Positions 10,592-14,847 of a DNA stretch of 34,928 bases are shown here, piece after piece (positions within the stretch are counted from its first letter, which is position 1; each line of letters starts with the position of its first letter). The stretch lies in IMG/VR virus record IMGVR_UViG_3300026224_000021. The stretch is one strand, 5' to 3'. The stretch comes from a virus. Its lineage: Duplodnaviria; Heunggongvirae; Uroviricota; Caudoviricetes. Under the pieces are notes generated by a model. It was not told where the DNA came from. It saw nothing but the letters and a program-made list of their open reading frames with translations, and did not search any database. A program made the translations under genes and the position numbers.

Positions 10592-10931
10592 GAGATACCG
10601 TAAAAGTCAGGGGATCAAAAAAATCTTCGGTGTGGGCGCTAATCAGCAGGCGACCAGAAAGCGGGGTTTCTTCTGTCACACTGACCGTGCCGGGTGTGAT
10701 GCGCTCATCATCTTCAATCAGCAGCGTCATCTGCATCATGATGTCGGCACGAAGCGTCGGGCTTTTTTCAGCCAGCAGGCGCGTTGCCAGTCCACTCTCA
10801 ATGATGGCGTGCTGGCAGTCCTGGGCAATACTTTCTCTGTTGTTGCATAACACCGGCTCACTGGCGCTGTTCAGCGTGAGATTGCGACCGGTGATGAGCA
10901 AATCAATGTAAAGCGGTTTATCAGTATGCAT
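10581..10931 (-). CDS. baseplate wedge protein (gpW / gp25-like)
   Basis: 116-aa ORF between the tape measure and J-like genes; size and position match P2 gpW. Confidence 0.45.
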   Translation of the reverse strand: MHTDKPLYIDLLITGRNLTLNSASEPVLCNNRESIAQDCQHAIIESGLATRLLAEKSPTLRADIMMQMTLLIEDDERITPGTVSVTEETPLSGRLLISAHTEDFFDPLTFTVSLDD

Positions 10932-13095
10932 GTAGCTCCATCCACTCGTTGAGACGGGCAGGGGAGGGATCCTGTACGTTAACGTTGACTACACGACGGG
11001 AGTTGTCGATTGTGGTCTGGTTTTCGCTGTTGCTCTGCATCTCTGCCGCAATGCCACCCGGCCCCGCGCTGATGGCTTTACCGCCGGTTAATACGGAGCC
11101 TTCGCCACTTCCTGTGCTTTCTGATGTGCCGATGTTAACGCCGGGGATCATGTTGAGTTTGTCCACAATCCAGCCCCATGAATCACTGAAGGACTGTTTC
11201 ACCAGTTCCCAGAGGTTGCTGAAAATAGCCAGGATCCCGGAAGCCAGATTTTTCAGTGAATCCAGAGGGTGAGTAATATCCAGGCTGTTCCAGATATCCT
11301 TATACCCCTGCAGAATAATGAGCAGGGCCTGCCACACTTTTGATAACAGTCCGAGCATGATTTCAGTTGGCGTCAGGATCCAGTTGATTGCTGTGGCAAC
11401 GATACGGCCAAAAGACGCACCGGCATCGCTGGCGCGTCCGAACGCTTCGCCCGTCAGTTCTACCGGTGTGAGTAAATTCATCAGCCAGTTAAATGCTGTT
11501 TTGATGGCATCCCATACAAAACCAAAAACAGCGCCGATATCGGCCAGAATGGGAGAGCCAAGTGAAATAGTCTTCCATGCATCGCTGAACCCCTGAATGA
11601 ATCCGCTGAAAAACGCTTTGATGGGTTCCCAGAATTTCCAGACAAGAGCAACAACTGCTGCAATGGCTGCACCAATAAGCAGAATGGGCCCGCTCATCAT
11701 CAACATGGTGGTAAGAAAGCCGTGTCCTGTCAGCATTGAAACCAGCATGACCCTGTTCAGATATTGTTGTGCGGCGGCATAAGCCCCTGTTGCAGCAGCG
11801 GCCAGTGTATTTCGCAATGCGCTTAACCTGAGAAGCTTTATTAAGCCTGTTACGGGGGCAATCAGCCCTTTTGTTACAAAGCTGAACAGTCCCATGATGA
11901 TATTGCTGAGAGCGCCAACGGTTGCGAGGCTAAGAAAAGTCCCCGCCAGTAAACCAATTGCACGCGTGATGTTTGGATACAGACGTAACCAGGCAACAAA
12001 GGATTTGCCGCCTTCGTTGCTTTTCTGGATGAATGGGTACAGAACGGGCAACAACTGTGTGCCAATTTCGATGCGAATGCCGTTAATAATTGCGGCGGCC
12101 TGTTCCCATGGATCAGCCATGGCCTGCGCCATTTCGACAGCCTTATCCATACCTTTGATATTGCCCAGCGTGGCGATATTCTTTTCAAGTCCGCCAATGT
12201 CCGCATTGAGTAATTTAATCATGGCCACAGCTTCATCGGAGCCAAAGGCGCTTTTCAGCAAATCGGAATCAGCCACTTTTGACAGATCACCAAATTTACC
12301 CCTGATAAGTTTCATGATCTCGACAACACTTTTCATCGTGCCGTCTTTATTCACGAAATTAAGTCCCAGCTTTTTCTGGGCGCTGCCTACTGCGGCAAGA
12401 AATGCCTTGTACTTTGTCCCGGCCTCGCTGCCACTCATGGTGGCCTGCAGTTGTCCCAGCACGGCGAACTGTTCAGCCGCATCAATACCAGCCGCTTTTG
12501 CGCTGGCACCCAGCGTGGTGAACGCTGCTGACATGTTATCGCCGGTGGTTTTAAACATTTGCACGGCGGTGGCGGTTTGCCCGGCGACCTGCTCCACCCA
12601 TTTGCTTTTTCCCATGGCATCAGCCTGGTCTTTAAAGATGCCGTACATGGTGCCCATGTAGGCGGTAATGGTCTGGCTGCTGGATTTGGTTGCTGCTGCT
12701 ACCGTTGCTGATGCGGTGGTGAAGCGGGACAGCTCATCGTCAGTTAACCCGGCAATGGCTGACTGGATGTCGTAAGAAGCACGCACAAAATCCTGCGCAG
12801 CCCCGCCGTATTCCATAGTGAAATCAACGGCGGCGCGGCTGAGTTTTCGCAGTCCGGACTCTGCGACGCCCAGTGATTTTACCTCACCGAGCGCCCTGTC
12901 CATTTCAATGGCTGGCATCAGTGCACCCTGAATGGCTGCACCCACTCCCCAGAGTGCAGCGCCTCCGGTAGCAATGTCCCGAAAGGCTCCCCGACTTGTT
13001 GCAGCAAATCCCTGAACCTGTCGCCCGGCTGCACGCAACGGCCTTGTCAGGCGGTCTGTCAGTTCAAGAAGTAATTCAAGGCGCTGTTGTGACAT
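10921..13095 (-). CDS. tail tape measure protein
   Basis: 724-aa ORF, Ala/Gly-rich with several long hydrophobic segments, immediately downstream of the frameshifting chaperone. Confidence 0.75.
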   Translation of the reverse strand: MSQQRLELLLELTDRLTRPLRAAGRQVQGFAATSRGAFRDIATGGAALWGVGAAIQGALMPAIEMDRALGEVKSLGVAESGLRKLSRAAVDFTMEYGGAAQDFVRASYDIQSAIAGLTDDELSRFTTASATVAAATKSSSQTITAYMGTMYGIFKDQADAMGKSKWVEQVAGQTATAVQMFKTTGDNMSAAFTTLGASAKAAGIDAAEQFAVLGQLQATMSGSEAGTKYKAFLAAVGSAQKKLGLNFVNKDGTMKSVVEIMKLIRGKFGDLSKVADSDLLKSAFGSDEAVAMIKLLNADIGGLEKNIATLGNIKGMDKAVEMAQAMADPWEQAAAIINGIRIEIGTQLLPVLYPFIQKSNEGGKSFVAWLRLYPNITRAIGLLAGTFLSLATVGALSNIIMGLFSFVTKGLIAPVTGLIKLLRLSALRNTLAAAATGAYAAAQQYLNRVMLVSMLTGHGFLTTMLMMSGPILLIGAAIAAVVALVWKFWEPIKAFFSGFIQGFSDAWKTISLGSPILADIGAVFGFVWDAIKTAFNWLMNLLTPVELTGEAFGRASDAGASFGRIVATAINWILTPTEIMLGLLSKVWQALLIILQGYKDIWNSLDITHPLDSLKNLASGILAIFSNLWELVKQSFSDSWGWIVDKLNMIPGVNIGTSESTGSGEGSVLTGGKAISAGPGGIAAEMQSNSENQTTIDNSRRVVNVNVQDPSPARLNEWMELHAY

Positions 13096-13292
13096 TACGA
13101 TCCCTTAAAAGCACGGATAATGCCGTTATTGACGGCGATGCTCATATTTTCCCAGTAGTGGTTATCCAGCCAGACGGCGGCAGCCAGTGACTGCGGCGAG
13201 TCATCCTCGCCGGGCAGCCAGTGGCGGCGCAGAATCAGCATCCGGGTAAGGTCATTGCGATCAATGGCCCCCAGATGGCTTTTTATTTTTTT
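13096..13292 (-). other. programmed -1 ribosomal frameshift site and E'-type extension of the tail assembly chaperone
   Basis: A AAA AAA slippery heptamer (minus-strand 13292-13286) at the last two Lys codons of the chaperone; the -1 frame stays open for about 62 codons and ends at a TAA (13098-13096) overlapping the tape measure ATG as TAATG. Confidence 0.65.
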
Positions 13293-13576
13293 ACGGTGAT
13301 TTCCACTTCCGACACAAACTCGTTATTTACGGCTGTTGCCAGGCTGGCTGGCATTCCTGGTTTTTCCAGCAACTGGTTCAGCAGATCGCGGTGCTCTTTA
13401 ATCACGATACGGCGCAGGTAGTTTTTCAGCGGCGCGATTTTGTTATCCGGCATGAAGTCGTTCTGCAGGTCGTTGTAGGCTTTTACGGTCGGGATAAACG
13501 TCAGTTCATGCTCGCCGACCTGTAAAGTGATGGCGTTCTCTGCGGTAGTCTGGGTGTTTTTATCGTTCATCATCAT
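13283..13576 (-). CDS. tail assembly chaperone (gpE-like)
   Basis: 97-aa ORF directly upstream of the tape measure gene with a slippery site at its 3' end; AAGGAA Shine-Dalgarno upstream. Confidence 0.65.
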   Translation of the reverse strand: MMMNDKNTQTTAENAITLQVGEHELTFIPTVKAYNDLQNDFMPDNKIAPLKNYLRRIVIKEHRDLLNQLLEKPGMPASLATAVNNEFVSEVEITVKK

Positions 13577-13602
13577 TTCCTTTTAAAGTCAAGAATAAGA
13601 GG

Positions 13603-13634
13603 GCTTAATAAGCCTGCAGGAAGGCTTATTAAGC
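13603..13634 (-). other. perfect 12-bp inverted repeat hairpin between the lysis genes and the chaperone
   Basis: gcttaataagcc ... ggcttattaagc separated by tgcaggaa, 7 nt past the stop of the M15 peptidase gene. Confidence 0.5.
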
Positions 13635-13640
13635 GTAAAA

Positions 13641-13982
13641 TCAGCGCACGCCGTCGTGCTCAAGGCTGAAATGATTGCCATCCGGGCGGTTTTTAAAACG
13701 ACCGCCCCATGCGCCACCAAGGGATTCCCAGTACTCGCCCAGCTCGCGGTAGGCCTCTGTGCGGGTCTGATATTCACCGTTAATAAACAGATTAAAATCC
13801 ACGGCCAGCCGCTGGCAGTGCAGGCTGTTGGCAATGCCGGATCCCTTTTGTGCGTTGAGTTTTGCCTGTTCTGGCGTGCGGTACGCCTCACCGAACGTCA
13901 GGCCATAACCGCGCTGATGGGCAAACTGGATGAGTTTTCCGATCATGACGGTAAATTGTTGTTGCTTATCGGAGAGTTTCAT
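13641..13982 (-). CDS. peptidase M15-type endolysin (putative L-alanyl-D-glutamate peptidase)
   Basis: 113-aa ORF with zinc-peptidase-like motifs SLHCQRLAVD and GNHFSLEH; sits next to a holin-like membrane protein. Confidence 0.55.
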   Translation of the reverse strand: MKLSDKQQQFTVMIGKLIQFAHQRGYGLTFGEAYRTPEQAKLNAQKGSGIANSLHCQRLAVDFNLFINGEYQTRTEAYRELGEYWESLGGAWGGRFKNRPDGNHFSLEHDGVR

Positions 13983-14091
13983 TTTTGCTCCTTATGAGGT
14001 TGCTGAGGTTTGCGCAGCCAGTACCACAGTGCCCGGATAATTTTCCAGGCAATGGCGGCAGCTTTTTGTTCCCTGCGGGACAGCATTGCTG

Positions 14092-14388
14092 TTACTCCTC
14101 TTTGTTCTCTTTCTCGCCCAGCTTCCGGCGCATATGACGCAGGAAGATTTCCACAATCTGGTAACCGGCAATGCCCATTGCAGTGCCTGCGCCGGCAATG
14201 GCCAGTGGGTCAAGGTTCGGGTAACGAACCAGCAGGGCAGCGGCAGAAACACCCAGCGCGCTCCCCAGCAGGGTTCGACCCACAAACAACCGCAACGTAA
14301 TCGGCTCTGCGCCAGCCAGCACCCGACTTGCGGCAGCGATTCCGCCCAGAATGCCCAGGGTGATGATGGTGCGTTCATGCTCCTGCAT
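14092..14388 (-). CDS. putative holin
   Basis: 98-aa ORF with three hydrophobic helices and a charged C-terminus (RHMRRKLGEKENKEE), upstream of the peptidase gene. Confidence 0.5.
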   Translation of the reverse strand: MQEHERTIITLGILGGIAAASRVLAGAEPITLRLFVGRTLLGSALGVSAAALLVRYPNLDPLAIAGAGTAMGIAGYQIVEIFLRHMRRKLGEKENKEE

Positions 14389-14391
14389 GGT

Positions 14392-14847
14392 TCACCCCAT
14401 CAGTCCGCGCACGTCGTTCTCTGAGAGAACGGGCACACCGTTGATACGCACAAAGTCAGGGCTTGCCACCACGTATTTGATTTTGTGCATGGTCAGATCT
14501 GCGCTTTCGGTGTCAATGCTTAACAGGCCGGAAAGCATCAGCTCGCAACCGAAGGCTTCGACGCGGATTTCTTCAGTGCCTGTGTTGGCGTAAAACACAA
14601 AATCCATTGGCGGCAGATCGCGCCACGATCCCGCCTGAGCAGCCACTTCCCCGAGTTGGTTAAAGCTGCGGGTACTCATTTCGATTTCACCTTCGGCACT
14701 GACAGGGCCGCGCAGTTTGCCGTCAGGGATGCCACGGGTTTTGGCAACGGCACTTTCATCGCTGATGTCCAGTGAGATGCTTTTCACATGGATATCCGTT
14801 CCACCGATAAAGGTGTCAAACGCCATGCCGTTAATGCGGGTCGTCAT
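14392..14847 (-). CDS. tail tube protein (FII-like)
   Basis: 151-aa ORF immediately downstream of and coupled to the sheath-sized gene. Confidence 0.5.
   Translation of the reverse strand: MTTRINGMAFDTFIGGTDIHVKSISLDISDESAVAKTRGIPDGKLRGPVSAEGEIEMSTRSFNQLGEVAAQAGSWRDLPPMDFVFYANTGTEEIRVEAFGCELMLSGLLSIDTESADLTMHKIKYVVASPDFVRINGVPVLSENDVRGLMG

Follow-up and report, generated by a model that had tools for sequence, protein, structure and literature searches.

The window analysed in this study (the whole stretch of 34,928 nucleotides, from IMG/VR virus record IMGVR_UViG_3300026224_000021) contains the HP1-type tail module of an HP1/ESSI-2-like (Peduoviridae) Escherichia coli prophage, which is present in 42 of 5,426 complete genomes. 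The genes of this module are ordered sheath, tube, holin, endolysin, chaperone with its extension, and tape measure, an order identical to that of HP1, and the neighbours were recognised by their Pfam matches (sheath DUF2586, M15 endolysin and holin, with DUF2590 and baseplate J beyond). The tail tube gene (14392..14847, minus strand) belongs to the HP1 Orf24 family (Pfam PF10772 Phage_HP1_Orf24, E 6.8e-51). The tail tape measure gene (10921..13095, minus strand) encodes a protein of 724 aa matching PhageMin_Tail (E 8e-29) and phrog_28 (E 3.8e-103), and its start has its own Shine-Dalgarno sequence, AAGGGA (duplex dG -5.2).

The tail assembly chaperone gene is read in the zero frame at 13576..13283 on the minus strand and encodes 97 aa when counted from its first ATG, as in the open reading frame list. 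The protein, with a predicted mass of 11.1 kDa, covers the whole profile of Pfam PF10963 Phage_TAC_10 (positions 1-82 of 82, E 4.9e-25, 88 bits against a gathering cut-off of 25.7), also matches phrog_1214, and carries the RefSeq label 'putative phage tail assembly chaperone'. Three consecutive ATG codons (13576-13568) form the 5' end of the gene, and the Shine-Dalgarno sequence AAGGAA abuts the first of them; the third (13570) lies 6 nt from AAGGAA and is the better-spaced and more likely start, giving a product of 95 aa, and homologues in databases are mostly 93-95 aa long.

Several other features of the window were observed alongside these genes. Between the endolysin stop (13641) and the chaperone start lies a perfect 13-bp inverted repeat with a 6-nt loop (GCTTAATAAGCCT / AGGCTTATTAAGC, 13603-13634), which on the minus strand resembles a terminator with a weak T tail and could be an attenuator or a processing site between the lysis genes and the chaperone and tape measure genes. 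No Rz/Rz1-type spanin gene was evident between the endolysin and the chaperone (13577-13640 and 13641-14388); ESSI-2, HP1 and YenM_324 have a spanin gene at the equivalent position. Farther away, two Rfam matches above the gathering score on the minus strand, to C4 antisense RNA (29419-29506, 80.5 bits) and to isrK Hfq-binding RNA (29542-29616, 64.3 bits), make up a P1/P7-type antisense immunity module in an HP1-like prophage.

The chaperone reading frame ends ...ATC ACC GTA AAA AAA TAA. Its last two sense codons (Lys-Lys) contain the slippery heptamer A_AAA_AAA in X_XXY_YYZ register (13292..13286, minus strand), the only in-frame heptamer of this form within the gene, and the zero-frame stop TAA (13285..13283) lies directly 3' of it as a possible 'shifty stop'. 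The -1 frame contains no stop over the 12 codons before the heptamer and the 63 codons after it. Read from the last A of the heptamer, the extension (13286..13095, minus strand) consists of 63 codons (IKSHLG...AFKGS; full translation IKSHLGAIDRNDLTRMLILRRHWLPGEDDSPQSLAAAVWLDNHYWENMSIAVNNGIIRAFKGS) and a TAA stop (13097..13095); in the sequence TAATG, the last base of this stop is also the first of the tape measure ATG (13095..13093). The predicted fusion protein has 160 aa and a mass of 18.2 kDa from the first ATG of the chaperone, or 158 aa from the third. The original prediction had placed GTA AAA AAA TAA at the 3' end of the chaperone gene, a long frame opened by a -1 slip on A AAA AAA, and a terminating TAA overlapping the tape measure ATG; each of these was borne out on the minus strand at the 13283 end of the gene, with 63 codons in place of the approximately 62 first counted. 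It had further described the interval that separates the chaperone stop from the tape measure gene (13282..13096) as 187 bp of otherwise non-coding DNA. The length is correct, but databases do not regard the interval as non-coding: RefSeq PGAP calls a 48-aa ORF there (13241..13095, minus strand), named 'DUF6890 family protein', which corresponds to the distal three quarters of the extension.

The extension as a protein domain

The extension matches the complete profile of Pfam PF21830 DUF6890 (positions 1-44 of 44, E 4.4e-23, 81-84 bits compared to a cut-off of 23.6) over its residues 19-62, as well as phrog_7050 (E 8e-29), and all 18 of the diverged extensions tested match DUF6890. A scan of 1.84 billion representative proteins recovered the DUF6890 domain only as ORFs of 28-67 aa (43 representatives) and found no protein of 140 aa or more containing it. 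The N-termini of these database ORFs map anywhere between residues 6 and 24 of the extension. In E. coli E7-1N7 the internal ATG has been lost, and PGAP calls only a 29-aa fragment there. Current records do not join the two frames: among 12 related phage records examined, none has a joined CDS annotated, the region being given either as a stand-alone 'DUF6890' ORF or as nothing, and frameshift annotation is absent from the records of HP1, K139 and ESSI-2. A literature search likewise returned no mention of DUF6890, or of a chaperone frameshift in HP1, K139, phiO18P or ESSI-2 (Xu et al. 2004 and Christie et al. 2002 being outside the scope of that search). Sequence searches of solved structures with the chaperone and extension profiles gave nothing below E 0.07, and an AlphaFold2 model of the fusion computed without an alignment was unusable (mean pLDDT 44.9).

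One database protein combines parts of both reading frames. Protein P0004 of Salmonella enterica Montevideo (96 aa) joins the chaperone (...NYLRR) directly to DUF6890 (...HWLPGEDD...) through an internal deletion between short repeats encoding RR; the prophage copy that carries it has presumably decayed.

Conservation and selection from the slip site

Relatives of the locus were gathered from annotated phages, E. coli genomes, IMG/VR and GTDB genomes (where a scan of genome contigs yielded 3 loci). The resulting 225 related loci comprise a first set of 45 and 180 further loci obtained by scanning with the extensions of K139, phiO18P and HP1. Throughout the first set (45 of 45), the chaperone ends in [G/C]TA AAA AA[A/C] followed by a stop. 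An uninterrupted -1 frame of 60-64 codons leads from there to the beginning of the tape measure gene, and the +1 frame is short. Among the 180 further loci, A_AAA_AA[A/C] occurs at the same place in 174, and in 173 of these the stop is directly adjacent; these 173 loci, with heptamer and stop at exactly the predicted base, represent 96 of 103 distinct contexts. Overall, the heptamer with its adjacent stop was found in 218 of the 225 loci. Across lineages the seventh base of the heptamer is either A or C, a variation that tandem tRNA slippage allows. The arrangement is conserved in phages of at least 11 host genera in total, namely those of Escherichia, Edwardsiella, Cronobacter, Yersinia, Vibrio, Aeromonas and Haemophilus, and also of Pasteurella, Salmonella, Pseudoalteromonas and Salinivibrio, and the isolated infectious phages HP1, K139, ESSI-2 and phiO18P have the conserved extension.

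Conservation of the protein sequence begins at the slip site. The tblastn matches in 73 phage records mostly start at extension residue 1, and in the related phage records examined the extension match starts 4 nt before the annotated end of the chaperone. Twenty distinct extensions from HP1/K139/ESSI-2-type phages, with identities down to 37%, align without gaps from the first post-slip codon onwards and share the pattern I/L-x3-[VLI]-x-A-I-x2-N-x-L-x-Q-x-L-x-L-R-R-H-Y/W-L-P...W-L. The ATG at 13241 (extension codon 16) has no Shine-Dalgarno sequence (duplex dG +0.7), and most relatives have a codon for Ile, Tyr, Leu, Ala, Phe or Val at this position; 5 of the 20 lineages have no ATG, GTG or TTG within the first 30 codons of the extension. 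Extension codons 2-15, upstream of this ATG, show 79, 85 and 153 differences at codon positions 1, 2 and 3, respectively, and dN/dS values of 0.04-0.58. These substitution patterns indicate purifying selection, in the -1 frame, on the 14 codons that precede the sole in-frame ATG. The start of the alignment, the loss of start codons, the selection, the position of the heptamer and the scattered N-termini of the database ORFs together place the beginning of the coding region at the slip site rather than at any start codon.

A small number of lineages depart from the common arrangement. One lineage of IMG/VR UViGs (L070-L074) retains a conserved DUF6890-like -1 ORF (approximately at locus positions 640-880), its chaperone ends ...GCA TTG GAC TAA with no recognisable slippery heptamer, and an ATG lies 11 nt after the chaperone stop. 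Because these loci keep the -1 ORF without the heptamer, the DUF6890 domain can apparently be expressed another way in at least some phages, possibly by reinitiation or by a non-canonical shift. In another IMG/VR locus (L063) the heptamer A_AAA_AAC is kept, TCA replaces the stop, and the zero-frame stop comes 4 codons further on, while in a third case (L094, also from IMG/VR) A5C instead of A6C puts the extension in the +1 frame, probably as the result of a homopolymer sequencing error or a mutation.

Probable frameshifting, its possible stimulators and alternative explanations

The RNA that follows the heptamer is predicted to be structured. A candidate 3' stimulatory hairpin (13280..13237, minus strand) starts 5 nt beyond the heptamer; the first 55 nt past the heptamer have a minimum free energy of -19.5 kcal/mol (z -2.66), and the 121-nt context around the slip site has a z of -4.15. 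Across 19 loci the 55-nt post-heptamer window has a mean z of -2.13, compared to -0.36 in controls (p 3e-6), and across 29 dereplicated loci the means are -1.66 and -0.26 (p 8e-7); the controls were 9-15 windows in the same loci, and both p-values are optimistic, as the loci are phylogenetically non-independent. RNAalifold predicted no pairs on the 19 sequences, that is, no structure conserved in register across the family. Within the enteric clade, 79.7% of cells in the hairpin are paired; covariation there is weak, amounting to 2 pairs altered on both sides. A search of Rfam gave nothing at the slip site. An upstream Shine-Dalgarno-like stimulator was also considered as a candidate and is not supported: only 10 of the 29 dereplicated loci have one, and a conserved Glu codon confounds the signal.

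The stop codon is a further candidate signal. It remains adjacent to the heptamer in nearly all of the loci compared while its identity switches among TAA, TAG and TGA. A change of TAA to TCA would remove the stop and leave the extension protein unaltered, yet such a change was seen only once (L063). The concept of a 'shifty stop' goes back to Weiss et al. 1987, as cited in PMC5009743. It is possible, but on balance doubtful, that the adjacent stop is a selected part of the recoding signal, and that the ratio of chaperone to fusion protein is set by slippage competing with release factor and by 3' hairpins that are specific to each lineage. If true, this would set HP1-type chaperones apart from those of lambda and P2, in which the slip sites lie several codons before the stop. 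The near-invariant abutting stop and the family-wide enrichment of 3' structure despite differing hairpins are of possible interest to the study of recoding.

The arrangement as a whole very probably represents a programmed -1 ribosomal frameshift of the lambda G/GT and P2 E/E+E' type that yields products of approximately 11 kDa and 18 kDa. The frameshift originally predicted for this chaperone is thus supported by the position of the gene, the register of the heptamer and the conservation of the slip site across the related loci. From these observations we infer the slippage itself and its frequency, the production of the fusion, the roles of the stop and the hairpin, and the functions of the proteins. 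Most ribosomes would terminate at the TAA at 13285..13283 and release the chaperone of about 11 kDa. A minority would slip back by one base, with two tRNA-Lys on AAA AAA within A_AAA_AAA (13292..13286), read on as ATA AAA AGC ... for 63 more codons to the TAA that overlaps the tape measure ATG, and produce a fusion of about 18 kDa (...EITVKK-IKSHLGAIDR...AFKGS). The frequency of slipping is probably raised by the abutting stop codon and by the hairpin 5 nt downstream. Both A_AAA_AAA and A_AAA_AAC are among the shift-prone heptamers tested in E. coli, where they are weaker than A_AAA_AAG (PMC5009743), and moderate shiftiness would suit a product made at a low ratio, such as lambda gpGT. By analogy with lambda, the shared N-terminal part of the two products would coat the tape measure protein, while the C-terminal DUF6890 domain would recruit tube protein so that the tail polymerises to the length set by the tape measure; the product of the tube gene at 14392..14847 is the presumed binding partner of the extension domain. 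Neither product would be expected in the finished virion.

There are several potential alternatives to ribosomal frameshifting. It is improbable that the extension is made only as a free-standing 48-aa DUF6890 protein from the ATG at 13241, possibly by termination-reinitiation (the chaperone stop lies 45 nt upstream), with the heptamer being incidental. This is how PGAP annotates the protein, all 43 representatives of the family in the database are short ORFs, and the heptamer-less L070-L074 have an ATG soon after the chaperone stop; moreover, the in-frame ATG of the window makes some independent initiation possible. However, that ATG has neither a Shine-Dalgarno sequence nor a position conserved in most relatives, a quarter of the lineages compared have no early start codon at all, and the 14 codons preceding it show both conservation and purifying selection in the -1 frame. 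The database ORFs begin at arbitrary positions, and a free-standing protein would leave the heptamer and adjacent stop, present at almost every locus, unexplained. Transcriptional slippage, in which RNA polymerase adds one A in the A7 run and some mRNAs thereby carry both parts in a single frame, appears less probable still. Products of this kind are known to arise by slippage on A/T runs (PMC5009743). The window does have A7, and one inserted A would put the extension in the chaperone frame; nevertheless, efficient slippage by bacterial RNA polymerase generally needs longer runs, of about 8-9 or more. The explanation is disfavoured because C at position 7 shortens the run to six A in approximately two thirds of the lineages (A6C), in which the arrangement is unchanged. 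What is conserved is the X_XXY_YYZ heptamer and not the length of the run, and the enrichment of 3' RNA structure fits a stimulator of ribosomes.

The remaining alternative, that the open -1 frame arose by chance or is decaying in a defective prophage, with a product of no consequence, is very remote. An open frame of this length is no rarity by chance: 8% of shuffles of the 189 nt stay open, so that the case must rest on other evidence, and the internal deletion in Salmonella P0004 shows that decayed copies exist. The extension nevertheless stands above chance because it matches Pfam and PHROG families at E values between 1e-23 and 1e-29 and is conserved in relatives, across the host genera listed above and in isolated infectious phages, with dN/dS well below 1. 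This conservation effectively refutes chance or decay.

With ribosomal frameshifting as the preferred explanation, the C-terminal domain that Phage_TAC_10 chaperones gain by frameshifting appears to be what is catalogued as DUF6890, phrog_7050 and the RefSeq 'DUF6890 family protein'. Entries for DUF6890 would accordingly be corrected from independent genes of unknown function to a C-terminal domain of the chaperone, and the same correction would cover phages and prophages of the HP1, K139, ESSI-2, F108 and phiO18P types; within the collections searched, its scope is 73 phage records and 42 complete E. coli genomes. The locus is an instance of a well-known phenomenon, and its main value is this correction of annotation. 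The finding extends the chaperone frameshift that is nearly universal in long-tailed phages to another chaperone family and introduces no new principle. For the engineering of such prophages or of tailocin-like particles, it would mean that both products are needed for tails.

Comparison with known systems

The original prediction equated the locus with the conserved E/E' (G/GT) arrangement. This holds for the architecture and the presumed function, and does not extend to detectable sequence homology to P2 E/E'. P2 gpE/gpE+E' shares its layout with the window: P2 is also a member of the Peduoviridae with a contractile tail and a chaperone gene of about 90 aa directly upstream of the tape measure (PMC3091744), a -1 slip near the 3' end adds a domain of approximately 50-60 aa that forms a small Pfam family by itself, and the stop of the extended ORF falls at, or slightly within, the beginning of the tape measure gene (in the P2 RefSeq record, where the joined CDS is annotated, E+E' ends 8 nt inside gene T). 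In contrast, the slip in P2 (FETUD tail operon) occurs on T_TTT_TTG, six codons before the E stop, while the A_AAA_AAA/C of the window and its relatives abuts the stop. P2 has been reported to have no downstream hairpin (PMC3091744), unlike the window, where a hairpin is predicted and where lysis genes lie between the tube and chaperone genes. The P2 E+E' protein matches PF10109 Phage_TAC_7 and PF06528 Phage_P2_GpE, whereas the window proteins match only PF10963 and PF21830. Comparison of the window with P2 gave a BLASTP E value of 0.26 and, for the extension profile against P2 E', an hhalign probability of 0.4%, and Pfam searches at E up to 10 found no Phage_P2_GpE match in any of the 18 extensions. 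The chaperone of the window would thus work in an E/E'- and G/GT-like manner while belonging to separate sequence families.

Lambda G/GT, the founding example (G_GGA_AAG), has the same position relative to the tape measure gene as the window chaperone. There, gpG and gpGT are made at a fixed ratio of about 30:1 and are both absent from the virion; the binding partner of the G part is the tape measure, that of the T part the major tail protein (PMC5009743). Lambda differs in being a siphovirus with a different heptamer, and functions could be assigned to the window proteins by analogy only. The slip site itself resembles that of E. coli dnaX, which likewise has a heptamer of lysine codons read by a single tRNA-Lys, and whose hairpin a few nucleotides downstream has a predicted counterpart in the window; however, dnaX uses A_AAA_AAG with a 5' Shine-Dalgarno-like stimulator, while the last base in the window and its relatives is A or C, which is intrinsically less shifty in E. 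coli (PMC5009743), and the product and biology of dnaX are unrelated to a tail chaperone.

The true homologues are orf26 of Haemophilus phage HP1 with the unannotated region before orf27, orf30 of Vibrio phage K139, and the corresponding genes of Cronobacter phage ESSI-2 and relatives. These phages share the same chaperone family, a heptamer and stop at the equivalent position, and the DUF6890 extension, carried in a -1 ORF of 60-64 codons that runs to the tape measure start. They differ from the window in having A_AAA_AAC, with C instead of A at position 7, and their extensions are 38-56% identical to that of the window.
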